From a virus (lineage: Duplodnaviria; Heunggongvirae; Uroviricota; Caudoviricetes): 43,220 bases of DNA. Below are positions 4,779 to 43,220 of the stretch, piece by piece. Positions within the stretch are counted from its first letter, which is position 1, and every line of letters begins with the position of its first letter. The notes under the pieces were generated by a model. It was not told where the DNA came from and made no database searches. It saw only the letters and a program-made list of their open reading frames with translations. A program made the position numbers and the translations under genes. The DNA lies in IMG/VR virus record IMGVR_UViG_2526164633_000017. One strand, 5' to 3'.

Positions 4779-5522
4779 TAATCACCTCAATACTGACACC
4801 ACCGGGAACAAACAACGGGTTGCTGATACCGTTCCTGCGGGCCAGCCGTTGCCAGTTCCGGCTGTTTCCTGTGTAACGGTACAGGGCCACCATTGCAGGC
4901 ATCGTCTCCGGCAGGCGGTGCGTTTCACTGCCCGCCAGTTGCAGCCCGCGTTTTTCCAGGTCGGCAACAACCAGCAGACGCAGTTGCGTAAGCTGAACGC
5001 TGTCTGTCGAAAAGCCCTGCTCAGATGCCGTCAGAATGACGGTATCCAGTGCAGCCCCCAGCATGGCGGCTGTTTTTCCGATATCGGACACACTTTCAAA
5101 TACCGGGGGCGTGGCTGTACCACTGTCTGAAAAGGATACCTGTGAAAAACCGCCGTCCGGGGTTATGGCAGTTAACTGTAACTGTCCCTGTGTGACGGTA
5201 GCGGATGTGCTGCTGGCCCCGATGGCTGTGCCGGTTGTGGTGGACGGGGCATCCAGTACAGGTGCACGGGCGGCATTATCCATCCGGCGACTGAAATCCA
5301 GTGCCGCAGTCAGTGCCTGGCTGGCAGCTTCTGCCCGGTATGTCTGCGCCGCTGCCAGCATGACGTAGTTCAGTGTGGCAATATTTTTTTCTGCAACCGG
5401 ACTGTTGTACGAGGTTGTGATTGTCCCCTGTCTGCCTGCGGTGGCAGCATGGCGACGTTCGAATCGCTGCGCCAGACGGTTCCATGTGGAAAATGCTGTC
5501 CGGGTATCGCATAACGATGAAA
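4771..5522 (-). pseudogene. DNA circulation protein (Mu N/gp43-like), C-terminal fragment, separated from its 5' part by IS66-family insertion
   Basis: ORF 4771..5361 is in-frame continuation up to the IS boundary at 5522; the N-terminal fragment lies at 7977..8720; combined length about 498 aa matches an intact gene. Confidence 0.75.
5515..5522. repeat. Target site duplication CGATGAAA (left copy) of IS66-family insertion
   Basis: Identical 8-mer CGATGAAA at 5515-5522 and 7977-7984 directly flanking the element ends. Confidence 0.85.
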
Positions 5523-22036: not shown

Positions 22037-22627
22037 TCATGCCTTACCCAGCAGCACATCACGGATACGCTGCTCCAGCTCTTCGCTGATGCCATCCTGC
22101 CCGCGCAGTTCTTCACTGACGGCGTTTGCCGCTTCTTCTGCGAATGCCTGGCGGATTTCTTTCTCGCGCCGGTGGCTGGACATTGCCGTGGATTCCAGAC
22201 GCTGTGCCGCCAGCATGGCATTTTTCAGCAGGTCAATATCCACGTCAGATTCCGGGTTTTCGATTTGCCGCATCATGGCCTTAAAAAGCTGGCTGCGGGC
22301 CATTTCCAGAATCAGCTTTGTGGTTTCTCCCATTGGCTTGTCGCCAAGTTCTGCGGTCAGTGCTGACGTCATTTCACGCATCTGTCGCAGGTTATGGCCT
22401 ACCTGCTCGACGTTCGTCGCGTAACGGTTCAGACCGGAACGGGAGAGTTTCATCTCATCCGGCAGGCCAGCGTCTTCAATCAGTGCGTTAATTTCTTCCA
22501 GAATGCGGGCCTGTGGGATCGCTTTATCACGCAGCATTTCATGCAGCGTTTTACGTACGTTTTCCGGCAGTAAATCCACTTTTGAAGCCCGGCCCCGTGT
22601 TTTCCTGTCCATCACGCCTCCTGTCAT
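22037..22627 (-). CDS. Terminase small subunit-like DNA-binding protein (Mu gp27-like)
   Basis: 196-aa ORF directly upstream of large terminase. Confidence 0.65.
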   Translation of the reverse strand: MTGGVMDRKTRGRASKVDLLPENVRKTLHEMLRDKAIPQARILEEINALIEDAGLPDEMKLSRSGLNRYATNVEQVGHNLRQMREMTSALTAELGDKPMGETTKLILEMARSQLFKAMMRQIENPESDVDIDLLKNAMLAAQRLESTAMSSHRREKEIRQAFAEEAANAVSEELRGQDGISEELEQRIRDVLLGKA

Positions 22628-22914
22628 GCACGGGGACGAGGACGCTTGACACCGGCAACGCGGGCACGACCTTCCGCCACATCCTGACCTCGGGAGGTCA
22701 GCGTTACGACATAAAAGCCGCGCAGGTTTTCCACGGTGACCAGTTGCTGCTCTGCCAGCCAGTCAATCTGGCCGCGAACCACATCGCGGGAAACGTTGTG
22801 TCCGTATGCATCCAGACAGTCCTGAAGGATGGATTCGTTTGCTTCGTTATTGCAGTCCATCAGGGAACGCAGGATGACCAGACGACGGTCTTCGGTCAGA
22901 ATATCGTTAATCAT
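22624..22914 (-). CDS. Hypothetical protein (Mu gp26-like by position)
   Basis: 96-aa ORF, translationally coupled to neighbours. Confidence 0.55.
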   Translation of the reverse strand: MINDILTEDRRLVILRSLMDCNNEANESILQDCLDAYGHNVSRDVVRGQIDWLAEQQLVTVENLRGFYVVTLTSRGQDVAEGRARVAGVKRPRPRA

Positions 22915-23228
22915 GAATTACTCCGGTTTACTGCGTTTTCAAGCAGCAGCTCCAGTTGATGGGAAAATGACTGCACCCGCTGGGACAGCACCCGGATATC
23001 GCCGGACAGCTCTGCAATTCGCAGGCGCATTTCGTGTACATCTTCTGTGCCAGGGATGCTGGCGTAGCGGGTTTCCATTTCGGTCATCCGGTTTTCAAGA
23101 CGCTCCACACGCTCAGTGCTGGCAAAACTACGACGCATTGCCCAGACGGCCCCACCGGCCACAACAGGCAACAGGTAAGGCCATAACGCTAAAACTGAAA
23201 TCAAATCCATTATTCTGCTCCACGGCAC
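22911..23228 (-). CDS. Membrane-anchored lysis-associated protein (Mu gp25-like)
   Basis: 105-aa ORF with one N-terminal hydrophobic segment (LISVLALWPYLLPVVAGGAVWAM) then coiled-coil-like region; located in lysis cassette. Confidence 0.6.
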   Translation of the reverse strand: MPWSRIMDLISVLALWPYLLPVVAGGAVWAMRRSFASTERVERLENRMTEMETRYASIPGTEDVHEMRLRIAELSGDIRVLSQRVQSFSHQLELLLENAVNRSNS

Positions 23229-23404
23229 CAGTGGCAGTAGTTCGCCATCGGCTGCTGTCTCAGCACATCAGGCCGCAGCTCACGACCGCAACCGGGACAC
23301 AATACAGGCGGGTCATACGCCGCCGGGCGGGGAATATCACGGGTATCCCCCTGCCAGAGTTCAGCGAGCAGCAGCGCCACCGCCCGGTTCTGGTCTTCGT
23401 TCAT
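23210..23404 (-). CDS. Small zinc-ribbon protein
   Basis: 64-aa ORF with CPGCG...CHWC pairs. Confidence 0.5.
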   Translation of the reverse strand: MNEDQNRAVALLLAELWQGDTRDIPRPAAYDPPVLCPGCGRELRPDVLRQQPMANYCHWCRGAE

Positions 23405-23702
23405 AAATTTCTTTCCTTCGGGTCTCCTGTTCCCGGACTGATGCCTTGTCGCGGTTGCACTGCCCGAGCGCCATCAACAGGTCAGCATTCCAGAGAAGGG
23501 ATGCTCCCCACGTCAGGGGCTGTGGCATGGGCGGAACGGGCGTTGCTTCCGTCAGTTCTGCATCAGTTTCGGGCAGGATCACCACCGATGGCACGGGTGC
23601 GTTTTTCGAGTTCCCGCAACCTGTCAGCAGCAACGGCAGGCACAGGACGAGTGCTGCAATTGTCACCGGTAATGGCGGTTGTAATTTTTTGTTTTGCATC
23701 AT
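23361..23702 (-). CDS. Outer-membrane spanin lipoprotein (Rz1-like)
   Basis: Start ATGATG at 23697-23702 inside the Rz-like gene in another frame; signal peptide MMQNKKLQPPLPVTIAALVLCLPLLLTGC with lipobox LTGC; Pro-rich mature part; overlaps i-spanin 3' end. Confidence 0.7.
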   Translation of the reverse strand: MMQNKKLQPPLPVTIAALVLCLPLLLTGCGNSKNAPVPSVVILPETDAELTEATPVPPMPQPLTWGASLLWNADLLMALGQCNRDKASVREQETRRKEIYERRPEPGGGAAAR

Positions 23703-23949
23703 GATGTTCTGTCTCGTCTGCCAGCCGCGCGGCACGATTTGCGGCACGGATAGCGGAAAATACCTGCATCGTCTGTTCCTGACCGTGTAACAACCATTCA
23801 GCCGTGTTGCGGGCCTGTTGCTCCGTCTGTAATTCACGGCGCAGCGTCTGGTTATCGTGGCGGGTGCTGTCCAGCCTGTGCCACAACACCCCGGACAAAA
23901 CGGCGGCAAACACGGCTGCCAGCAGTAAACTTTTACTGGCGAAGGTCAT
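23563..23949 (-). CDS. Inner-membrane spanin (Rz-like)
   Basis: 128-aa ORF with N-terminal TM segment (SLLLAAVFAAVLSGVLW) and charged coiled-coil periplasmic domain; directly after endolysin. Confidence 0.75.
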   Translation of the reverse strand: MTFASKSLLLAAVFAAVLSGVLWHRLDSTRHDNQTLRRELQTEQQARNTAEWLLHGQEQTMQVFSAIRAANRAARLADETEHHDAKQKITTAITGDNCSTRPVPAVAADRLRELEKRTRAIGGDPARN

Positions 23950-24451
23950 CCGCCCCCCTGATATTCCAGATAGCCATTTCCACTTCGCGACGGTTCATCA
24001 GTCCTTTCCATTTATGGCCTGCGGCAAACACCCAGCGGGCCATCTGGTCACGCGCTCCGGCGTAATCACCGGCATTGAGTTTTTTCAGCAGCGTTGATTT
24101 ACTGAATGCGGTAACACCGGTGTTGAAAATAAACGTTGCCAGCGCCGTTTTCTGATATGGCGTCAGCGGCACCCTGACAAGACGATCGATTGCCGCATAA
24201 ACCGGTTTTAAATCACTGTCGAGGAGAGCCATACACTCCGCATGGCTGTAACGGCGCATTTCGATATCCGGCCCGGTATGCCCCACACAGACCGAAAGCA
24301 CACCGCCAATATCGCGGTAAGGCATATAAGCGATATTTTCCAGGTGGATCAGAGACTGACGGGTCATTTCCTGATAACCACCCACACCGCCACCGGCAAT
24401 CGTTACAGCCAGCAGTGTGGCTTTCAGTTTTTTTGGTATCCCCGCCATCAT
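23933..24451 (-). CDS. lys: Endolysin, lysozyme-like with N-terminal signal-anchor-release (SAR) type segment
   Basis: 172-aa ORF; Gly/Ala-rich weakly hydrophobic N-terminus (LKATLLAVTIAGGGVGGY) followed by E-x8-D catalytic-type motif (ENIAYMPYRD) typical of T4-lysozyme-type muramidases. Confidence 0.8.
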   Translation of the reverse strand: MMAGIPKKLKATLLAVTIAGGGVGGYQEMTRQSLIHLENIAYMPYRDIGGVLSVCVGHTGPDIEMRRYSHAECMALLDSDLKPVYAAIDRLVRVPLTPYQKTALATFIFNTGVTAFSKSTLLKKLNAGDYAGARDQMARWVFAAGHKWKGLMNRREVEMAIWNIRGADDLRQ

Positions 24452-24521
24452 GCTTCCCTGAAAAAATGCTCTGATGGCAGTCTAAAAAATCAGGTGGCAG
24501 GTGCGGGATTATGGTGACAGG

Positions 24522-24548
24522 AAATAACCGGCAGGATGCCGGTTATTT
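24522..24548 (-). promoter_or_regulatory. Perfect interrupted palindrome AAATAACCGGC-N5-GCCGGTTATTT between C and lys; candidate activator site for late lys promoter and/or transcript end
   Basis: 11-bp arms at 24522-24532 and 24538-24548, overlapping the stop codon of the C-like gene, about 75 bp upstream of lys ATG. Confidence 0.45.
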
Positions 24549-24965
24549 TGGGCTTTCAGGTGAGAACAGATCAGGCTGATGACGTCGTGTATGCAGCTTT
24601 CTCTGGCGGGCAATAATCTGGTAGATCTGCGGCTGGGACAGGCGGTACTGGCGACGCAGTTCTTCCATGTTACGACCATTAAACTGGCAGTAAAGCAAAT
24701 CGTCGCGTAACGCGGTCAGGATCGTATCGCCGCAGGGGATGTAAAACTGCCGTCCACCCAGAAAACAGGACAGGGCAACGGCCTGTTTACGGGCAAGTTC
24801 ACGGGGATTGCTGACGTTCTGGCGTTTCAGTTCGTTTTCCAGAACATCAATCAGATCAACCACCGAACGGGGCCAGCGTGATTCCAGTTCCGGGGCCGGG
24901 ATGTTATCAATATGTCCGATTAACTGGCGAATTGCCGGATCGTGTTCAAATAAATCATGCTGCAT
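24543..24965 (-). CDS. C: Late transcription activator (Mu C-like, Mor/C family)
   Basis: 140-aa ORF; Mor/C family features (C-terminal HTH, QFNGRN motif shared with the Mor-like paralogue at 25944..26333); precedes lysis and morphogenesis genes. Confidence 0.85.
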   Translation of the reverse strand: MQHDLFEHDPAIRQLIGHIDNIPAPELESRWPRSVVDLIDVLENELKRQNVSNPRELARKQAVALSCFLGGRQFYIPCGDTILTALRDDLLYCQFNGRNMEELRRQYRLSQPQIYQIIARQRKLHTRRHQPDLFSPESPK

Positions 24966-25006
24966 ATTTTCCCCCGGTTAACAGACAAAAAGATACACCA
25001 CGGCAC

Positions 25007-25020
25007 TGATGGTTATCAGA
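25007..25020 (-). promoter_or_regulatory. Palindrome CTGATGGTTATCAG upstream of C-like gene; candidate middle-promoter element
   Basis: Dyad symmetric 14-mer in the 112-bp gap upstream of the C-like gene. Confidence 0.3.
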
Positions 25021-25077
25021 ACCACAAGGGCAATCACTTTTATCGCATTAATCAGCGTGGACGGCCCGAAACATTCA

Positions 25078-25308
25078 TCACTGAATTTTCTGTACACAAT
25101 ATTTTTCCTTATAACGTTGACAGTGGTGAAGAATTTCCGGCATATCAACTGACTGCCAGCCTTTCATGTAATAACTGCCGTGGGTGCCATCGTGCCCTGT
25201 GTAATCCATTGGCTTTGGTGGTGGGCCTCCGGCCTCCCGATGTAATACCTCCTGTCGTAAACGTTCACGCCTGCCGAACTGAAAGGACGCATCCCACCCT
25301 TTACCCAT
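25078..25308 (-). CDS. Hypothetical small protein
   Basis: ORF 25078..25362 in track; internal ATG at 25306-25308 avoids most overlap with upstream gene. No recognisable domain. Confidence 0.3.
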   Translation of the reverse strand: MGKGWDASFQFGRRERLRQEVLHREAGGPPPKPMDYTGHDGTHGSYYMKGWQSVDMPEILHHCQRYKEKYCVQKIQ

Positions 25309-25861
25309 GCAGAACCTCCCGACAGGCGCTGGCGAGCAGATCCAGACGGTTAAACCAGCCATTCAGATATTTCCCCTGCGAGGCACTGGATTTGATAATC
25401 CCTGCGTAATAGCGGGAACGACGCAGGAAGCACTGCAACAGCAGCCAGTCAGTATCGGCACGCAGAACGGCTGCGCGTGTGTTTTTACCGACGATGCCAT
25501 CATCATCAACACCTGCTGCCGCCTGGAGGATCTGAATCGCGCGTTTAACACCGTGCTGAACGGCAGCATCAAAAACGAATAAGGAAACGCCATCAGGCCA
25601 TTCGTTACACTTTGCCGCCAGCCAGTAATCACGCCAGTAGATCTGCGCCGCCTGCTCGCGGGTTAAATCCTTAATGCGGGTATCAGGTTTTCCGTCACCG
25701 TTAACATCGGTTTTGCCATCAATAACGCCGTCGCGACGGTCAGAAATACCGTATTTCGTTTCGCCGCCACGGTCGGCAGGATCATTAACATAGCCACCTT
25801 CAACATCAGGGCGTATAACGAAATTCAGCGAATGAAGGAATGCAGGGGAAAACTCAGGCAT
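25301..25861 (-). CDS. Peptidoglycan hydrolase, GH108-like N-terminal domain with C-terminal peptidoglycan-binding-like domain
   Basis: 186-aa ORF with motif EGGYVNDPADRGGETKYGI near N-terminus (characteristic of glycoside hydrolase family 108) and DGIVGKNT-type peptidoglycan-binding region. Confidence 0.7.
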   Translation of the reverse strand: MPEFSPAFLHSLNFVIRPDVEGGYVNDPADRGGETKYGISDRRDGVIDGKTDVNGDGKPDTRIKDLTREQAAQIYWRDYWLAAKCNEWPDGVSLFVFDAAVQHGVKRAIQILQAAAGVDDDGIVGKNTRAAVLRADTDWLLLQCFLRRSRYYAGIIKSSASQGKYLNGWFNRLDLLASACREVLHG

Positions 25862-25913
25862 GTTGCCCTCCTGTCATGAACGTTTTATCGTCACAACAGA
25901 ATATTGAGGGCGT

Positions 25914-25938
25914 AAAAAAAGCCGGATTAACCGGCTTT
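25914..25938 (-). terminator. Rho-independent terminator after mor-like gene (end of early transcript)
   Basis: On transcribed strand: AGCCGG-TTAAT-CCGGCT followed by T7 run, immediately after the mor-like stop. Confidence 0.65.
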
Positions 25939-25943
25939 ACTGT

Positions 25944-26333
25944 TTAAAACAAAGGGGGGGAACACTGACGATACTTTATACGCCGCATTCGTCGGATGGC
26001 TTTATAGACTGTGTTAAATGTCACACCATGACGGATTGCCAGTTCGTGAACATTGCGACCGTTGAAATCATTCCAGATACGCAAATCCCGAATAAGCGAA
26101 TCCAGAACCTGACCGCGTGGAATGTAGACCTGACCGCCGCCCAGATGCTTACAGATAGCCACAACAATCTCCAGTGAATGGGCCGGGTCAACACCTAACC
26201 GGGACAATTCCCCGCGCAGTAAATCGTTCAGCTCCGCCAGCAGTGCCGGAAAGCGTGACGTATCCTCTGCGGGATTGTCAAGATGTGCCAGGATGGTGTC
26301 ATCCTGCAAATCACCAAATAAATCTTCCGTCAT
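25944..26333 (-). CDS. mor: Middle operon regulator (Mu Mor-like, Mor/C family)
   Basis: 129-aa ORF, paralogous to the C-like protein (shared ...GGGQVYIPRG... / ...NDFNGRN... motifs). Confidence 0.85.
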   Translation of the reverse strand: MTEDLFGDLQDDTILAHLDNPAEDTSRFPALLAELNDLLRGELSRLGVDPAHSLEIVVAICKHLGGGQVYIPRGQVLDSLIRDLRIWNDFNGRNVHELAIRHGVTFNTVYKAIRRMRRIKYRQCSPPLF

Positions 26334-26881
26334 TGTGCCATCCTCCGTGTCTTTCTGGCACGGGCATAAGCCGCCGTCATGGCATCATAGCCGCGCAGTT
26401 CACGCCCGGACGGACTGACTGGCAACGGAAGCCCGTGACGGGAAAAGGCTTCACGAATACAGCGGATATGCCACTGCTTGAGAGTTTCGAGAACAATCAA
26501 CAGGGTGTCGCCATGACACCACGCCAGCGTGGAAACACCCTGTCCGCCATTACGTTTCGCCGTCAGGCGCTGAACATATTTATCCAGCGCCACATCACCG
26601 CCATCGGTAATAAAACCGTCTTCTGCCATCTGCTGCCAGACTTTGTATACCTTCTCGCGGGGCGTGACATGCCCCTTAAAGCGGCGACGTGGATGTTTAT
26701 TCAGCTTCTTAAAGCCGCGTTCTTTCATGGCATCGAGCACCTGTTCCAGTTGCGTAACCGTCAGCTCGCGGCAACTGATTTTGCCCGTTTTCTGCATCAG
26801 AAAAGCGCGGTAAGTGTCGTCGTCGAGTTGTAGCTCCCGACGGGCGACATGGATTAATTTAATCAGGGATGTGCGATTCAT
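26330..26881 (-). CDS. gemA: GemA-like early protein (Mu gp16-like)
   Basis: 183-aa ORF immediately upstream of mor, translationally coupled. Confidence 0.7.
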   Translation of the reverse strand: MNRTSLIKLIHVARRELQLDDDTYRAFLMQKTGKISCRELTVTQLEQVLDAMKERGFKKLNKHPRRRFKGHVTPREKVYKVWQQMAEDGFITDGGDVALDKYVQRLTAKRNGGQGVSTLAWCHGDTLLIVLETLKQWHIRCIREAFSRHGLPLPVSPSGRELRGYDAMTAAYARARKTRRMAQ

Positions 26882-35389: not shown

Positions 35390-35421
35390 AATTTACCTCT
35401 CTATACGACTATGAGGAGAAA

Positions 35422-35727
35422 TTGCTTATTGCCAGATGGGAACTGACAGCAGAACAGGCTGTTACACAGCAGTTAAAAAATGAGGTGTCAAAAGGAAAAC
35501 TGATTGACACCGGGTTCTGTATTTTTGCCCTCAGTAAGCTGGCAATGGCGTTATCCAGTACGCTTGATTCCATCCCTTTATCCATGCAGCGACAGTTTCC
35601 TGATTTAACACCGCGCCATCTTGACCATCTGAAAACCCTTATTGCGAAGGGGGCAAATCAGTGTGCGCGGGCAGGGGATAAATTACCGGATTTACTCGAT
35701 GAATATATCAGAGCAACAACTGAATAA
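35422..35727 (+). pseudogene. nu1: Lambdoid terminase small subunit (Nu1-like), C-terminal half only; 5' part displaced by Mu-like prophage insertion
   Basis: Reading frame matches the C-terminal half of lambda Nu1 as I recall it (...FCIFALSKLA...LDSIPLSMQRQFP...LLDEYI...); frame hits a stop at 35389-35391 inside the terminal repeat region; no ATG start (track start is TTG). Confidence 0.65.
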
Positions 35728-37627
35728 TATGATGGCTGCCGTTTCGGTTGCGCTGCAGCCTCTGGTCAGGGTTGTACCAATGACGGCAGTTGAATGGGCT
35801 GATCAAAATTATTATCTGCCTAAAGAATCTTCATATGGTGAGGGAGAATGGAAAACGCTGCCATTCCAGATCGCCATTATGAACTGTATGGGTAACGACC
35901 AGGTTCGCACGGTTAACCTGATTAAATCTGCCCGTGTTGGCTATACAAAGATGTTGCTGGGGGTGGTCGGGTATTTTATTGAGCATAAATCCCGAAACAG
36001 TCTGCTTTTTCAGCCCACGGATTCTGCCGCTGAAGATTTTATGAAGTCTCACGTGGAGGCGACGATTCGGAACGTGCCATGCCTGAAAGACCTTTCCCCA
36101 TGGCTGGGTCGTAAACATCGTGACAATACTCTCACGCTGAAACGCTTTTCATCGGGCGTCGGTTTCTGGTGCCTGGGCGGCGCTGCCGCCAAAAACTACC
36201 GTGAAAAATCCGTGGACGTGGTCTGCTATGACGAACTTTCCTCGTTCGAGCCGGATGTCGAAAAAGAGGGCTCGCCAACCCTGCTGGGGGATAAGCGTAT
36301 TGAGGGGTCGGTGTGGCCAAAATCCATTCGCGGCTCGACGCCTAAAATCAAAGGCACCTGCCAGATCGAAAAAGCCGCTAACGAGTCGGCGCATTTTATG
36401 CGTTTTTATGTGCCCTGCCCGCACTGTGGGGAGGAGCAGTATCTGAAATTTGGCGATGAGTCCACGCCTTTTGGGCTTAAATGGGAGAAGGACAGCCCTG
36501 AAAGTGTTTTCTACCTCTGTGAACATCATGGCTGCGTGATCCATCAGTCTGAGCTTGACCAGAGCAACGGGCGGTGGATCTGTGAAAACACGGGCATGTG
36601 GACCCGTGACGGTCTGACGTTTTTCAGCGCCCGGGGTGATGAAATTCCGCCGCCGCGCTCCATCATGTTCCATATCTGGACGGCGTACAGTCCGTTCACC
36701 ACCTGGGTACAGATTGTCTATGACTGGCTGGATGCACTGAAAGATCCCAACGGCCTGAAAACCTTTGTGAACACCACGCTGGGCGAGACCTGGGAAGAGG
36801 CCGTGGGCGAAAAACTCGATCACCAGGTACTGATGGATAAGGTGGTGCGTTACACGGCGGCGGTGCCTGCCCGGGTGGTTTATCTGACGGCGGGCATTGA
36901 CTCGCAGCGAAACCGTTTTGAGATGTATGTCTGGGGATGGGCTCCGGGAGAGGAAGCCTTTCTGGTGGATAAAATCATCATTATGGGGCGTCCTGATGAG
37001 GAAGAGACGCTGTTACGTGTGGATGCGGCGATCAACAAAAAATACCGCCATGCGGATGGCACCGAAATGACTATTTCCCGTGTCTGCTGGGACACCGGGG
37101 GGATCGATGGTGAAATTGTTTATCAGAGATCAAAAAAACACGGTGTTTTCCGGGTGCTGCCGGTAAAAGGCGCATCTGTCTATGGCAAGCCGGTGATCAC
37201 CATGCCAAAAACCCGCAATCAGCGGGGCGTGTATCTGTGTGAAGTGGGAACGGATACCGCAAAAGAAATTCTCTATGCCCGTATGAAAGCCGATCCCACG
37301 CCTGCGGATGAAGCCACGTCGTATGCCATCCGTTTTCCTGATGATCCGGAGATTTTTTCGCAGACAGAGGCGCAGCAACTGGTGGCGGAAGAGCTGGTGG
37401 AGAAGTGGGAAAAAGGAAAGATGCGTCTGCTGTGGGATAACAAAAAGCGGCGTAACGAAGCGCTGGACTGCCTGGTGTATGCCTACGCGGCATTACGTGT
37501 GTCCGTGCAACGCTGGCAGCTTGATCTGGCTGTACTGGCAAAATCCCGGGAAGAAGAGACGACCCGGCCAACCCTGAAAGAACTGGCAGCGAAGCTGTCC
37601 GGAGGAGTGAATGGTTACAGTCGCTGA
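35699..37627 (+). CDS. A: Lambdoid terminase large subunit (gpA-like)
   Basis: ORF track 35642..37627; ATG at 35699 gives MNISEQQLNNMMAAVS...TAVEWADQNYYLPKES..., 642 aa, lambda A-like throughout. Confidence 0.9.
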   Translation: MNISEQQLNNMMAAVSVALQPLVRVVPMTAVEWADQNYYLPKESSYGEGEWKTLPFQIAIMNCMGNDQVRTVNLIKSARVGYTKMLLGVVGYFIEHKSRNSLLFQPTDSAAEDFMKSHVEATIRNVPCLKDLSPWLGRKHRDNTLTLKRFSSGVGFWCLGGAAAKNYREKSVDVVCYDELSSFEPDVEKEGSPTLLGDKRIEGSVWPKSIRGSTPKIKGTCQIEKAANESAHFMRFYVPCPHCGEEQYLKFGDESTPFGLKWEKDSPESVFYLCEHHGCVIHQSELDQSNGRWICENTGMWTRDGLTFFSARGDEIPPPRSIMFHIWTAYSPFTTWVQIVYDWLDALKDPNGLKTFVNTTLGETWEEAVGEKLDHQVLMDKVVRYTAAVPARVVYLTAGIDSQRNRFEMYVWGWAPGEEAFLVDKIIIMGRPDEEETLLRVDAAINKKYRHADGTEMTISRVCWDTGGIDGEIVYQRSKKHGVFRVLPVKGASVYGKPVITMPKTRNQRGVYLCEVGTDTAKEILYARMKADPTPADEATSYAIRFPDDPEIFSQTEAQQLVAEELVEKWEKGKMRLLWDNKKRRNEALDCLVYAYAALRVSVQRWQLDLAVLAKSREEETTRPTLKELAAKLSGGVNGYSR

Positions 37628-37817
37628 ACTGCAGGCGCTGCGTCAGGCGCGCCTTGATTTATTAACCGGTAAACGGGTGGTGTCTGTCCAGAAAGATGGT
37701 CGCAGAATTGAATATACGGCGGCTTCTCTGGATGAGCTTAACCGGGCGATCAATGATGCGGAGTCGGTACTGGGGACAACCCGACGTCGCCGTCGTCCGC
37801 TGGGAGTGAGGTTATGA
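37611..37817 (+). CDS. W: Head-tail joining protein (gpW-like)
   Basis: 68-aa ORF ...LLTGKRVVSVQKDGRRIEYTAASL... Confidence 0.85.
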   Translation: MVTVAELQALRQARLDLLTGKRVVSVQKDGRRIEYTAASLDELNRAINDAESVLGTTRRRRRPLGVRL

Positions 37818-39406
37818 AACGAACGCCTGTCCTGATTGATGTGAACGGCGTTCCGCTTCGTGAGAGTCTCAGCTACAACGGGGGCGGCGCAGGATTTGGC
37901 GGGCAAATGGCGGAGTGGTTGCCACCGGCGCAGAGTGTCGATGCGGCCCTGCTGCCCGCGTTGCGTCTGGGGAATGCCCGGGCAGATGATCTGGTGCGCA
38001 ATAACGGAATAGCGGCTAATGCGGTGGCCCTGCATAAGGATCACATTGTCGGGCATATGTTTCTGATCAGCTACCGTCCGAACTGGCGCTGGCTGGGGAT
38101 GCGGGAGACCGCAGCAAAAAGCTTTGTCGATGAGGTGGAGGCGGCCTGGTCGGAATACGCAGAAGGGATGTCTGGCGAGATCGACGTGGAAGGAAAACGC
38201 ACATTTACGGAGTTTATCCGTGAAGGTGTTGGCGTTCATGCGTTTAACGGCGAAATCTTTGTGCAGCCGGTCTGGGATACGGAAACCACGCAGTTATTCC
38301 GTACGCGTTTTAAAGCCGTGAGTCCGAAACGGGTGGACACGCCAGGACACGGTATGGGGAACCGTTTTCTGCGGGCCGGGGTGGAGGTCGATCGATATGG
38401 CCGTGCCGTTGCGTACCATATCTGTGAGGATGATTTTCCTCGCTCCGGGAGTGGACGATGGGAACGGATCCCGCGTGAACTTCCCACCGGGCGTCCGGCC
38501 ATGCTGCATATTTTCGAGCCGGTGGAGGACGGGCAGACCCGTGGGGCTAATCAGTTTTACAGCGTCATGGAACGGCTGAAGATGCTGGATTCCCTGCAGG
38601 CAACACAGCTTCAGTCGGCCATTGTGAAAGCCATGTATGCAGCGACGATTGAAAGTGAACTTGATACCGAAAAGGCCTTTGAATATATCGCCGGCGCGCC
38701 ACAGGAGCAGAAGGATAATCCGCTTATTAATATTCTGGAGAAGTTCTCCAGCTGGTATGACACGAATAACGTGACACTGGGCGGTGTCAAAATTCCGCAC
38801 CTTTTCCCTGGTGATGATCTGAAACTACAGACTGCGCAGGATTCAGACAATGGATTTTCTGCGCTTGAACAGGCGCTGCTGCGGTATATCGCCGCCGGTC
38901 TTGGCGTTTCCTACGAACAGTTGTCCCGTGATTACTCGAAGGTCAGTTATTCAAGTGCCAGGGCCTCTGCCAATGAGTCGTGGCGCTATTTTATGGGGCG
39001 GCGAAAATTTATTGCGGCCCGGCTGGCCACGCAGATGTTTTCCTGCTGGCTGGAAGAGGCACTTCTTCGGGGGATTATCCGTCCGCCACGGGCGCGTTTT
39101 GATTTTTATCAGGCGCGATCAGCCTGGTCACGGGCAGAGTGGATTGGTGCCGGAAGAATGGCCATTGACGGGCTCAAGGAGGTTCAGGAATCGGTGATGC
39201 GCATTGAGGCCGGACTGAGCACGTATGAGAAAGAGCTGGCGCTGATGGGCGAGGATTATCAGGACATTTTCCGCCAGCAGGTCAGGGAATCTGCAGAGCG
39301 GCAAAAAGCCGGACTCTCACGTCCGGTGTGGATAGCGCAGGCGTATCAGCAGCAGATAGCGGAGAGTCGCAGGCCGGAAGAGGAGACAACACCACGTGAG
39401 ACGTAA
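37814..39406 (+). CDS. B: Lambdoid portal protein (gpB-like)
   Basis: 530-aa ORF following W. Confidence 0.9.
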   Translation: MKRTPVLIDVNGVPLRESLSYNGGGAGFGGQMAEWLPPAQSVDAALLPALRLGNARADDLVRNNGIAANAVALHKDHIVGHMFLISYRPNWRWLGMRETAAKSFVDEVEAAWSEYAEGMSGEIDVEGKRTFTEFIREGVGVHAFNGEIFVQPVWDTETTQLFRTRFKAVSPKRVDTPGHGMGNRFLRAGVEVDRYGRAVAYHICEDDFPRSGSGRWERIPRELPTGRPAMLHIFEPVEDGQTRGANQFYSVMERLKMLDSLQATQLQSAIVKAMYAATIESELDTEKAFEYIAGAPQEQKDNPLINILEKFSSWYDTNNVTLGGVKIPHLFPGDDLKLQTAQDSDNGFSALEQALLRYIAAGLGVSYEQLSRDYSKVSYSSARASANESWRYFMGRRKFIAARLATQMFSCWLEEALLRGIIRPPRARFDFYQARSAWSRAEWIGAGRMAIDGLKEVQESVMRIEAGLSTYEKELALMGEDYQDIFRQQVRESAERQKAGLSRPVWIAQAYQQQIAESRRPEEETTPRET

Positions 39407-40901
39407 TCTTTCACACATTATTGCCGCAGCATTCAATGAACCGCTGCTTCTGGAGCCCGCCTATGCGCGGGTTTTCTTTTCGCGCTCGGGCGCGAGATGG
39501 GGGCAGCAAGTCTTTCGGTACCACAACAGCAGGTACAGTTTGATGCTCCCGGAATGCTGGCTGAAACGGACGAGTACATGGCCGGAGGTAAACGACCGGC
39601 CCGTGTTTACAGGGTGGTGAACGGTATTGCTGTACTGCCGGTGACCGGCACGCTGGTGCACCGGCTGGGGGGTATGCGGCCATTTTCCGGAATGACAGGC
39701 TATGACGGTATTGTCGCCTGTCTTCAGCAGGCAATGGCGGATAGCCAGGTGCGGGGCGTACTGCTGGACATTGACAGTCCGGGCGGGCAGGCCGCCGGCG
39801 CGTTTGACTGCGCTGACATGATTTACCGCCTCCGTCAGCAGAAGCCGGTCTGGGCACTGTGCAATGACACGGCCTGTTCTGCAGCCATGCTGCTGGCGTC
39901 GGCCTGCTCCCGACGGCTGGTTACCCAGACATCCCGTATCGGCTCCATTGGCGTGATGATGAGCCATGTCAGCTATGCCGGTCATCTGGCGCAGGCCGGT
40001 GTGGATATCACGCTGATTTACTCAGGGACGCACAAGGTGGATGGCAATCAGTTTGAAGCCTTACCGGCAGAGGTTCGCCAGGACATGCAGCAGCGCATTG
40101 ATGCGGCGCGCCGGGTGTTTGCCGAAAAAGTGGCGATGTTTACCGGTCTGTCTGTTGATGCCGTCACGGGAACAGAGGCCGCCGTTTTTGAAGGTCAGTC
40201 CGGCATTGATGCCGGGCTGGCGGATGAATTAGTCAATGCGTCGGATGCCATCAGTGTGATGGCCACGGCGCTGAACAGTAATGTCAGAGGAGGCACTATG
40301 CCGCAATTAACTGCAACGGAAGCCGCAGCGCAGGAGAACCAGCGAGTGATGGGGATCCTGACATGCCAGGAAGCGAAAGGACGTGAACAGCTTGCCACGA
40401 TGCTGGCAGGACAACAGGGCATGAGCGTTGAACAGGCCCGGGCGATTCTGGCCGCGGCGGCACCGCAGCAGCCGGTGGCATCCGCGCAGAGTGAAGCCGA
40501 TCGCATTATGGCGTGTGAAGAAGCGAACGGTCGTGAACAACTGGCGGCAACGCTGGCGGCGATGCCGGAGATGACGGTGGAAAAAGCCCGCCCGATCCTG
40601 GCTGCTTCACCGCAGGCGGATGCCGGACCCTCACTCCGTGATCAGATCATGGCACTGGATGAGGAAAAAGGGGCGTGAGGCGCAGGCTGAACAGCTGGCT
40701 GCCTGCCCGGGAATGACTGTGGAGAGCGCCCGGGCTGTGCTGGCTGCGGGATCAGGTAAGGCAGAACCGGTCTCTGCATCCACAACCGCCCTGTTTGAAC
40801 GCATCATGGCGAACCATTCACCGGCTGCGGTACAGGGTGGCGTGCCACAGACGTCAGCAGACGGTGATGCGGACGTGAAAATGCTCATGGCCATGCCATG
40901 A
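39396..40901 (+). pseudogene. C: Prohead protease/scaffold (gpC/Nu3-like) with at least two frameshifts and a triplicated C-terminal repeat
   Basis: N-terminus in frame 0 (39396..39620: MRRNLSHIIAAAFNEPLLLEPAYARVFF) shifts near 39476-39482 (T-run) to the frame of ORF 39497..40678; second shift at GAAAAAGGGG about 40660 to the frame of ORF 40620..40901. Confidence 0.7.
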
Positions 40902-40937
40902 AGTCAGTGCTGACCATCAACAGGAGGTTTTTACAAT

Positions 40938-41283
40938 ATGGTAACGAAAACATCACTGAACAGCGTGCGGAAGTACGTATTTTTGCCGGTAATGATCCGG
41001 CTCATACCGCCACAGGCAGCAGCGGGATTTCCTCGGCAACACCGGCACTGACGCCCCTGATGCTGGATGAAGCCAGCGGGAAACTGGTGGTCTGGGACGG
41101 ACAGAAAGCCGGTAGTGCAGTTGGCATACTGGTACTGCCGCTTGAAGGCACAGAGACGGTACTGACCTATTACAAGTCGGGGACCTTGCGACGGAGGCAA
41201 TCCGCTGGCCTGAAAGTGTGGATGAACACAAAAAGGCAAATGCCTTTGCCGGCAGTGCCCTGAGTCACGCGGCGCTGCCGTAA
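40938..41283 (+). pseudogene. D: Head decoration protein (gpD-like) with two frameshifts
   Basis: ATG at 40938 with RBS CAGGAGG; frame shifts at A-run near 40946 into frame of ORF 40898..41263 (…GNDPAHTATG…), then near 41190 into the frame that ends ...AFAGSALSHAALP at 41283. Confidence 0.65.
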
Positions 41284-41340
41284 CACGTTATCAGGCCACC
41301 GCGGTGGCCTGACTGATTTCTGAATGAAAGGAACTGATTT

Positions 41341-42367
41341 ATGGGATTGTTTACGACCCGCCAGTTACTCGGTTATACCGAACAAAAAGTGAAATTTCGT
41401 GCGCTGTTTCTGGAGCTGTTTTTCCGCCGTACGGTGAATTTCCATACCGAAGAGGTGATGCTGGACAAAATTACCGGAAAAACGCCGGTGGCGGCCTATG
41501 TCTCCCCGGTTGTTGAAGGAAAAGTGCTGCGTCATCGCGGTGGTGAAACCCGCGTGTTACGTCCGGGCTACGTCAAGCCGAAACACGAATTTAATTACCA
41601 GCAGGCGGTTGAGCGTCTTCCCGGTGAAGATCCGGCTCAACTGAACGACCCGGCCTACCGTCGTCTGCGTATCATCACCGATAACCTCAAACAGGAAGAG
41701 CATGCCATTGTCCAGGTGGAAGAAATGCAGGCGGTGAATGCCGTGCTGTATGGCAAATACACCATGGAAGGGGATCAGTTTGATACTGTCGAGGTGGATT
41801 TTGGACGCTCTGAAGGAAATAACATTGAGCAGGCCGACGGTAAAAATGGTCTGAGCAGGACCGTGATACGTTTGATCCGACGCATGATATTGACCTCTAC
41901 TGCGATCAGGCCAGCGGTCTTGTGAATATTGCCATTATGGACGGTACTGTCTGGCGTCTGCTGAATGGTTTTAAGCTGTTCCGCGAAAAACTGGATACCC
42001 GTCGCGGCTCAAATTCACAACTCGAAACGGCAGTGAAAGACCTGGGGGCGGTGGTGTCTTTCAAAGGGTATTACGGCGATCTGGCCATTGTGGTGGCGAA
42101 AACGTCTTATGTGGCAGAGGACGGTACCGAAAAACGTTATCTGCCGGAGGGCACGCTGGTCCTGGGAAATACGGCTGCAGATGGGATCCGTTGTTACGGT
42201 GCCATTCAGGATGCGCAGGCGTTGTCCGAAGGTGTGGTGGCTTCTTCCCGTTACCCGAACACTGGCTGACCGTGGGCGATCCGGCCCGTGAATTTACCAT
42301 GACGCAGTCCGCACCGCTGATGGTGCTGCCGGATCCGGATGAGTTTGTGGTGGTGCAGGTGAAATAA
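41341..42367 (+). pseudogene. E: Major capsid protein (gpE-like) with two frameshifts
   Basis: Three collinear frame segments: 41341..about 41838, about 41838..42262, 42263..42367 (…WLTVGDPAREFTMTQSAPLMVLPDPDEFVVVQVK); shifts at A5 run near 41838 and near 42260. Confidence 0.7.
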
Positions 42368-42375
42368 TCCGTGAG

Positions 42376-42404
42376 CGGGGGCGAAATGCCCCCGTGTCTT
42401 TTTT
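42376..42404 (+). terminator. Rho-independent terminator after capsid gene
   Basis: CGGGGGC-GAAAT-GCCCCCG followed by TGTCTTTTTT. Confidence 0.7.
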
Positions 42405-42418
42405 CACAGGGGGCTGAT

Positions 42419-42802
42419 ATGGCAACAAAAGAAGAAAATCAGAAACGTCTTCGTCAACTGGCTGGCCTGCTGGGGCGCGAGGCGGATATGTCGGGGAGTG
42501 CTGCGGATATTGCGCAACGTGTGTCTGAGTGGGAAGAGGAGCTTGCTGCTTCCCGGGAGGGCATTATGCCTGGTGATGAGAGCGGGCCTGAGCAAAATCA
42601 CACAGACGATGGTGAGCAGTTGCACAACACTGATGCTACGGATGATGTTAAAGCGGTCCGTGTGCGGCAATGCCTGCATGTGATGGGGTATTGCCCGGAG
42701 ACAGGCCGTCCCGTTGAACTGACGTACCGGGGCATGCGTGTTCTGGTGCCATCACCACTGGCGACAGCCATGATACAGCACGGAACGGCTGAGCATGCGT
42801 GA
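42419..42802 (+). CDS. FI: DNA packaging/head assembly protein (gpFI-like)
   Basis: ORF track 42371..42802; ATG at 42419 lies after the terminator with RBS AGGGGG; acidic protein. Confidence 0.7.
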   Translation: MATKEENQKRLRQLAGLLGREADMSGSAADIAQRVSEWEEELAASREGIMPGDESGPEQNHTDDGEQLHNTDATDDVKAVRVRQCLHVMGYCPETGRPVELTYRGMRVLVPSPLATAMIQHGTAEHA

Positions 42803-43148
42803 TTTTCAGAATGCCTTTGATGCTGCCCTTGCCGGGGTGGACAGCACGATTGTTGAAGTGATGGGGCTCTGTGCGCAGTTCACCTCGGGGGCACAGTGTG
42901 GCAGCGAAGTTCAGGGGGTTTTTGACGATCCGGAGTCGCTGGGGTTTGCCGGTAGCGGGGTCCGTATTGAAGGAAGCTGTCCGTCATTATTTGTGCGGAC
43001 GGATACGGTGCGTGCCGTGCGGCGTGGTGACACGCTGACCATTAATGGTGAGACATTCTGGGTGGACCGTGTTTCTCCGGATGACGGAGGGAGTTGTTAT
43101 CTCTGGCTCAACCGTGGGCAACCACCCGCAGTTAACCGGCGACGATAA
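42795..43148 (+). CDS. FII: Head-tail connector protein (gpFII-like)
   Basis: 117-aa ORF ending ...FWVDRVSPDDGGSCYLWLNRGQPPAVNRRR. Confidence 0.85.
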   Translation: MRDFQNAFDAALAGVDSTIVEVMGLCAQFTSGAQCGSEVQGVFDDPESLGFAGSGVRIEGSCPSLFVRTDTVRAVRRGDTLTINGETFWVDRVSPDDGGSCYLWLNRGQPPAVNRRR

Positions 43149-43162
43149 ACGCAGGGTGAATT

Positions 43163-43220
43163 ATGGCGATAAAAGGGCTTGATCAGGCGATTGAAAATCT
43201 GAGCCGGGTTCGTAAAAACG
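43163..43220 (+). CDS. Z: Tail completion protein (gpZ-like), 5' end only; continues beyond window end
   Basis: ATG at 43163, MAIKGLDQAIENLSRVRKN..., lambda Z-like N-terminus; truncated by window. Confidence 0.7.
   Translation, partial: MAIKGLDQAIENLSRVRKN

Follow-up and report, generated by a model that had tools for sequence, protein, structure and literature searches.

A probable holin-less, releasin-controlled lysis cassette in a Mu-type prophage

How does a tailed phage bring about lysis when its lysis genes include a membrane-tethered endolysin and no recognizable holin? The question is raised by positions 22911-24451 of the IMG/VR virus record IMGVR_UViG_2526164633_000017 (Caudoviricetes), a stretch of 43,220 nucleotides that was analyzed as a whole and is referred to here as the window. 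A first-pass annotation, made from the letters alone, had described this interval as five open reading frames (ORFs) in the order signal-anchor-release (SAR) endolysin, Rz-like protein, Rz1-like lipoprotein, 64-residue zinc protein, and a protein with a single transmembrane domain (TMD). All five are present on the minus strand in that order, and both the ORF list and the sequence place the coding of the lysis region on this strand throughout. We conclude that 22911-24451 very probably holds the lysis cassette in the late operon of a Mu-type (Muvirus) prophage and works as in phage Mu.

Comparison of window positions 22600-25000 at the DNA level gave identities of 98.9% to phage Mu (AF083977), 98.5% to D108, 98.0% to SfMu, and 99.8% to the Yersinia phages vB_YpM_5/6; given the matches of 98.9% to Mu and 99.8% to vB_YpM_5, the cassette pattern is not due to chance. 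Per-protein comparison showed gp25, gp26, and gp27 to be 100% identical to their Mu counterparts, with three substitutions relative to Mu in gp22, four in gp23, five in gp23.1, and one in gp24. The current Mu record labels gene 22 as SAR endolysin, 23 as i-spanin, 23.1 as o-spanin (lipobox LTGC, C29), 24 as hypothetical, and 25 as releasin; the comparison with Mu lysis gene assignments that the first-pass annotation had proposed shows the gene labels to agree with the experimentally based re-annotation of Mu. The gene set, order, and overlaps are those of Mu 22-23-23.1-24-25 (Chamblee et al., 2022; PMC9239132), with consecutive overlaps of 17, 140, 44, 1, and 4 nt in the order of transcription, and the K6/K7 pair of the endolysin, the LTGC lipobox, and the late promoter Plys are kept. 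Differences from Mu comprise A11T, A48G, and T52S in gp22, a few changes in the spanin proteins, A37P in gp24, and a middle operon without gene 19 and with a gene for a GH108 muramidase. The rest of the prophage is also Mu-type (transposase, GemA, Mor, C, terminase, a Mu-type portal, and head and tail genes). Holin-less, releasin-controlled lysis is already known from Mu, which Chamblee et al. (mBio 2022; PMC9239132) termed a holin-less phage, and the copy described here is near-identical.

Endolysin, releasin, and spanins

The gp22 homologue (23933..24448, minus strand) is a 171-residue SAR endolysin of the GH24 family, assigned by Pfam and by its identity to Mu gp22; the ORF encodes 172 residues from its first ATG at 24451 and 171 from 24448, where the Mu annotation starts it. 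It matches Pfam Phage_lysozyme (E=3.8e-36), its closest solved relatives are RrrD (4zpu) and the phage 21 SAR endolysin R21 (3hde), at E about 1e-36, and it is identical to Mu gp22 at 168/171 residues and to gp22 of the plaque-forming vB_YpM_5 throughout. Lysines K6, K7, and K9 are retained and are followed by a charge-free stretch at residues 10-26, ATLLAVTIAGGGVGGYQ, in which 10/17 residues are G/A/T/S. The maximum Kyte-Doolittle hydropathy (KD) of the N terminus over 17 residues is 1.32, whereas the true TMDs of gp25, gp23, and gp23.1 reach 1.95-2.41. Judged from the residues themselves, this charge-free, weakly hydrophobic, G/A/T/S-rich N terminus bears the signature of a SAR domain. Mu gp22 is a SAR endolysin that chloroform or the phage 21 pinholin can free (PMC9239132); by analogy with this protein, to which it is 98% identical, gp22 of the prophage would be membrane tethered and inactive until released. 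The GH24 muramidases of phage 21 (R21, with the pinholin S21 68) and P1 (Lyz) are likewise anchored in the inner membrane through an N-terminal SAR domain of weak hydrophobicity. In those phages a pinholin or holin depolarizes the membrane for release, whereas here there is no holin, release would depend on a DUF2730 protein, and dinitrophenol (DNP) would not be a trigger.

The E-x8-D-x5-T catalytic triad of gp22 retains E37 and D46, but has Ser rather than Thr at position 52, which is Thr in the solved relatives and in most Mu-type loci. Codon 52 lies at window positions 24293-24295. Among the loci compared, the S52 variant combined with A11T and A48G was found only in vB_YpM_5 and one IMG/VR contig. 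The S52 enzyme is presumably active, because the plaque-forming vB_YpM_5/6 encode the identical protein; the plaques of vB_YpM_5 are clear, and this phage lyses cultures of Y. pestis at 37 C. We also considered whether T52S compensates for the gain of the GH108 gene, and rejected this idea because GH108 and T52 co-occur in several IMG/VR Mu-type contigs.

The gene for the gp25 homologue (22911..23210, minus strand) encodes a releasin of the DUF2730 family (type I), 99 residues long, with one N-terminal TMD and a predicted cytoplasmic C-terminal domain. The mechanically called ORF runs from a GTG (22911-23228), while translation really begins with the ATG at 23210. The protein is identical to Mu gp25, matches Pfam PF10805 (DUF2730) over its whole length (50.4 bits, gathering cutoff 24.9, E=2.5e-13), and has a single hydrophobic segment at residues 3-25 (KD 1.95 over residues 3-19), an RR pair at 26-27, and a 73-residue tail with 12 acidic residues. 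The predicted topology is N-out, C-in, with the basic pair at the cytoplasmic junction. The gene is the fourth after lys, in a transposable phage, which places it within five genes of the endolysin.

Studies on phage Mu define the role of this protein: a Mu 25::cam lysogen does not lyse in time, gp22 and gp25 expressed from plasmids are sufficient for lysis, and a K6A or K7A change in gp22 makes gp25 dispensable (PMC9239132). Gp25, which is required to free gp22 from the membrane and is of help to unrelated SAR endolysins too, was given the name releasin (Chamblee et al., mBio 2022; PMC9239132). The first-pass suggestion that the single-TMD protein may control endolysin release is correct, since that protein is 100% identical to a required releasin (PMC9239132). 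The identity of gp25, together with the retention of K6/K7, allows the Mu mechanism to be transferred to this prophage with high confidence, and by analogy the gp25 homologue would be needed here for release of the SAR endolysin.

The gp23 homologue (23563..23949, minus strand), a 128-residue Rz-like i-spanin, matches PHROG 214 (Rz-like spanin, E=1.2e-34), has an N-terminal TMD at residues 7-23 (KD 2.28), and is identical to Mu gp23 at 124/128 residues; its gene overlaps lys by 17 nt. The gp23.1 homologue (23361..23702, minus strand) is a 113-residue Rz1-like o-spanin lipoprotein with an LTGC lipobox centered on Cys29, matches Pfam LysC (Rz1-like, E=7.9e-15), and shares 108/113 residues with Mu gp23.1. 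Its gene starts inside gp23 in another frame, overlaps it by 140 nt, and continues for 202 nt past the Rz stop, in agreement with the earlier description of an Rz1-like gene that is overlapping and not embedded; the version predicted by PGAP is shorter and starts at 23666. The mature lipoprotein of 85 residues contains 10 Pro. The PHROG 214 and Pfam LysC matches, the TMD, the lipobox with C29, and the 140-nt overlap together are those of a two-component spanin. An i-spanin bearing a TMD at its N terminus and a Pro-rich lipoprotein of the outer membrane whose gene lies in a different frame are likewise found in lambda Rz/Rz1 and P2 LysB/LysC; the layout here is overlapped, as in P2, whereas in lambda Rz1 is embedded. 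In Mu, gp23/gp23.1 form the spanin, as amber mutants give spherical cells (PMC9239132).

The cassette is preceded by the Mor-family activator gene C (24543-24965, minus strand), from which the lysozyme gene is separated by a 91-bp spacer. This C-lys intergenic region (24452..24542, minus strand) contains, by homology to Mu, a terminator hairpin that follows gene C, the late promoter Plys with its dependence on C, and the lys ribosome-binding site; 119/121 bases are identical to Mu, and the Mu record places the C-activated late promoter and the terminator in the same region. A scan for sigma-70 promoter and terminator consensus sequences gave nothing reliable; Mu late promoters are C-dependent.

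These elements suggest the following pathway. The late activator C would turn on Plys, as the near-identity of the intergenic region to that of Mu suggests. Gp22 would then be exported and remain inactive while its SAR domain tethers it to the inner membrane, held there by the paired cytoplasmic residues K6/K7 (as demonstrated in Mu, and kept here), and no holin would be made. We favor a mechanism in which gp25 acts at the membrane face as a non-covalent escort of low specificity, or masks the charge of the basic gp22 N terminus, because gp25 also helps unrelated SAR endolysins. The freed gp22 would refold and degrade the murein, after which the gp23/gp23.1 spanin would disrupt the outer membrane, as the spherical-cell amber mutants demonstrated for Mu. 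Lysis timing would be set by endolysin release and not by a holin sensitive to membrane potential.

The zinc-finger protein gp24

The remaining product of the cassette, the gp24 homologue (23210..23404, minus strand), is a 64-residue C4 zinc-finger protein with the spacing CxxC-x17-CxxC (C36, C39, C57, and C60) that differs from Mu gp24 only by A37P (63/64 identical). It belongs to PHROG 3260, of unknown function, and no Pfam family scored above threshold. The model PF01258 gave no match to gp24 and seven members of its family even at E<=1, and a gp24-family profile searched against the PDB reached DksA at E=0.22 only. A word-indexed search and an exhaustive phmmer search of 1.84 billion representatives returned only a few close enterobacterial relatives and low-complexity noise, and phmmer against the PDB gave no match. 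A single-sequence AlphaFold2 model (mean pLDDT 71.5, pTM 0.31) had no Foldseek match in the PDB below E=2 and was uninformative.

Gene order was more informative. A search of viral contigs anchored on gp25 returned near-identical Mu-type loci only, and the well conserved gp26 homologue was needed as an anchor to reach distant Mu-like phages; the sample so assembled comprised 80 IMG/VR loci. The ORF that immediately precedes the DUF2730 gene encodes, in most of these loci, a protein of 64-75 residues with CxxC-x17-CxxC spacing, and outside the Mu-type group the syntenic ORFs match Pfam PF01258 (zf-dskA_traR) in 9/9 cases. Alignment of the gp24 group with these TraR-type proteins using hhalign gave a probability of 74% (E=2.8e-5), and the four Cys lined up throughout. 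MuM16-2, a Mu-like phage of Shewanella, has a zf-dskA_traR protein encoded by the gene whose end overlaps the DUF2730 start by one base, as in the gp24/gp25 pair, and the BLASTP comparison of this protein with gp24 gave a pair E=1e-4.

Gp24 thus occupies the genomic slot held by true zf-dskA_traR genes in other Mu-like phages, and it matches TraR, lambda Orf73, and DksA in size class, CxxC-x17-CxxC spacing, and Leu and Pro positions. It is unlike TraR/DksA in falling below the Pfam threshold and in other features. Action of TraR on RNA polymerase needs a DxxDxA motif, an R48-type arginine, and a C-terminal helix (PMC9239242). Gp24 begins MNEDQNRA, giving ExxNxA in place of DxxDxA, and this motif is not conserved in the gp24 family; Val47 stands at the position equivalent to R48 of TraR; and the protein ends four residues past C60, with no C-terminal helix. 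In contrast, the syntenic TraR-type proteins retain both DxxDxA and the Arg. Going by these alignments, gp24 is probably a diverged or degenerate TraR/DksA-type finger, and because the features for action on RNA polymerase are missing we do not count it among functional TraR proteins.

The first-pass annotation had offered the zinc-ribbon protein, alongside the single-TMD protein, as a possible controller of endolysin release. That gp24 helps in this control, say as the releasin's partner or antagonist, has several points in its favor: the gene is part of the cassette, with its stop sharing 1 nt with the gp25 ATG (ATGA), an arrangement suggestive of translational coupling; diverse Mu-like contigs keep a small C4 zinc-finger gene directly upstream of their DUF2730 gene; the Mu-type protein has lost the TraR RNA polymerase motifs; and gp24 is not mentioned in the Mu lysis paper (PMC9239132). 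We nevertheless regard such a role as unlikely. Gp22 and gp25 alone lyse from plasmids, which indicates that gp24 is not needed for lysis, and the phenotype is explained by gp25 alone (PMC9239132). In addition, gp24 has no hydrophobic segment (maximum KD 0.52), and the proteins encoded at its position in other phages are genuine TraR/DksA fingers, whose family targets RNA polymerase and not membranes. The suggestion that the zinc-ribbon protein controls release is therefore unsupported. A more specific proposal, that holin-less lysis control took on gp24 as a third component, which works on or with the releasin in timing SAR endolysin release, is a long shot, if a marginally better one.

Search for a holin

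A holin is a small membrane protein of the late operon, usually with two or three TMDs (one to four are known), that is lethal on depolarization; no protein of this description was found in the cassette. We scanned for hydrophobic segments with a 17-residue Kyte-Doolittle window in ORFs of at least 20 residues on both strands of 22600-26400, and in ORFs of at least 30 residues across the whole window. Within 22911-24451, no ORF of at least 20 residues on either strand has two or more hydrophobic segments, which bears out the earlier report that a small holin ORF with two or three TMDs is lacking. The check extended to ORFs below 60 residues, where a multi-TMD protein might have been missed, and revealed none in this interval. 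On its transcribed strand, the hydrophobic segments are the gp25 TMD, the i-spanin TMD, the o-spanin lipoprotein signal, and two out-of-frame ORFs of 26 residues (23084-23164 and 23260-23340) with one weakly hydrophobic stretch apiece. The two-segment ORFs nearest to the interval are 25009-25152 (plus strand), antisense to gene 20, and 25363-25632 (minus strand), out of frame in the GH108 gene; the latter is the only two-segment ORF on the coding strand elsewhere in the prophage, and the other two-segment ORFs in the prophage lie opposite structural genes, in antisense.

A cryptic holin or pinholin might still be sought in gp25, as a pinholin-like depolarizer with one TMD, in gene 20, or in an unannotated small ORF. 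Gp25 and gp20 do have one strongly hydrophobic TMD apiece, and the two 26-residue ORFs would supply the small candidates. These ORFs, however, sit out of frame within gp25 and gp24, and there is no support for their translation. In Mu, the only TMD-bearing proteins are gp19, gp20, gp23, and gp25 (PMC9239132). When 19, 20, and 25 were expressed singly or together, DNP was not lethal, unlike with the lambda S105 and phage 21 S68 holins, and DNP treatment delayed Mu lysis instead of triggering it (PMC9239132). A cryptic holin has thus largely been refuted already for Mu, and we consider one highly improbable here.

Least credible of all, and close to negligible, is that the gp22 N terminus is an ordinary cleavable Sec signal peptide, with the enzyme secreted and the single-TMD protein irrelevant: small residues in the Gly-rich stretch (AGG, GVG), read from the sequence, would fit the -3/-1 positions, but Mu gp22 alone causes no lysis and is yet freed by chloroform or pinholin (PMC9239132), single changes at K6 or K7 decide release, so that the N terminus must stay attached (PMC9239132), and only one residue of the N-terminal region (A11T) differs from Mu. 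The first-pass assignment of a SAR-type and not a cleavable N terminus is in line with these Mu experiments, performed on a protein that differs at 3/171 residues (PMC9239132).

Several points weigh against the conclusion that the cassette works as in Mu. Function in this prophage is deduced from its genes, the activity of gp22 with T52S in the catalytic triad is judged only from the identical protein in viable phages, and the prophage encodes a soluble GH108 muramidase where Mu has none. The hydropathy scan used a simple Kyte-Doolittle window and no trained TMD predictor. For gp25 itself, three models of action have been put forward, namely proteolysis of the endolysin N terminus, an unknown partner, and a transient channel or charge masking (PMC9239132), and the literature searched contained no later paper settling the releasin mechanism. 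A holin-less, releasin-controlled cassette of the Mu type is nevertheless the reading that we adopt with much confidence.

Middle operon and prophage context

Mu gene 19, whose 120-residue product has four TMDs and was once proposed as the Mu holin, is absent from the prophage, while genes 18 and 20 are kept. In window 24966-25310 (minus strand), compared with 5008-5370 of locus L001, gene 18 (25078-25308) nearly abuts gene 20, a layout also present in plaque-forming relatives. Gene 20 (24978-25097, minus strand) has a GTG start and the change S37F. Gene 19 is apparently also absent from SfMu and several Yersinia phages, as indicated by a shorter span of the mor-to-C match. Phages vB_YpM_5/6, which naturally have no gene 19, form plaques and lyse cultures. 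The loss of gene 19 in viable phages supports the published view that gp19 is not a holin or lysis protein.

The GH108 gene (25301-25861, minus strand) encodes a soluble muramidase of 186 residues with Glyco_hydro_108 (Pfam) and PG_binding_3 domains and an EGGY motif, and the protein has no signal or hydrophobic segment. Its gene comes next after mor and sits directly downstream of the middle-promoter region conserved from Mu. Among deposited phages the gene was found only in vB_YpM_5/6 (100%); it is also present in 8/5426 complete E. coli genomes. Outside Muvirus, its closest relatives are GH108 proteins from phages of Klebsiella, Vibrio, and Shewanella. The Shewanella relative belongs to a Mu-like phage in which the GH108 protein is the annotated lysozyme, and the position is similarly early in the genomes of the others.

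The order SAR endolysin, spanin, zinc finger, DUF2730, and gp26 recurs in dozens of IMG/VR Mu-like contigs. Across the gp26-anchored loci (L026-L105), the arrangement of SAR or soluble endolysin, spanin(s), C4 zinc finger, DUF2730, gp26-like winged-helix protein, and small terminase is widely conserved. Conservation of gp26 (58-100% identity) is far above that of its neighbors in these loci, and the zinc finger is of the canonical TraR/DksA type except in the enterobacterial Mu-type group. A further arrangement is seen in E. coli SE11 (L106, NC_011415.1 2684181-2691200; also L042 and L043), which carries a Mu-type prophage with the GH108 gene and genes 18-20. Its late 'lys' is a divergent remnant of 142 residues in which the catalytic Glu is, by eye, apparently absent; the DUF2730 gene comes next, and the spanin genes and gp24 are missing. 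The SE11 prophage is either lysis-defective or reliant on GH108.

Only window positions 7970-35405 are colinear with E. coli FDAARGOS_1059, at 99.98% identity. The c-repressor end of Mu lies at ~35405, and 35405-43220 holds lambdoid genes for the terminase small and large subunits, portal, and head-tail joining. This right flank differs from the ycjO/psp flank of the same prophage in FDAARGOS_1059, and the left 8 kb, comprising the tail-fiber/invertible G region, is rearranged relative to that genome. The Mu-type prophage appears to be inserted in, or to adjoin, another prophage.

Holin-less lysis set at the release of a SAR endolysin is an unusual strategy, and the value of the present cassette is confirmatory for the findings made in Mu. 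Were gp24 after all to set the release time together with the releasin, the zinc-finger/DUF2730 gene pair conserved across Mu-like phages would be a functional unit.

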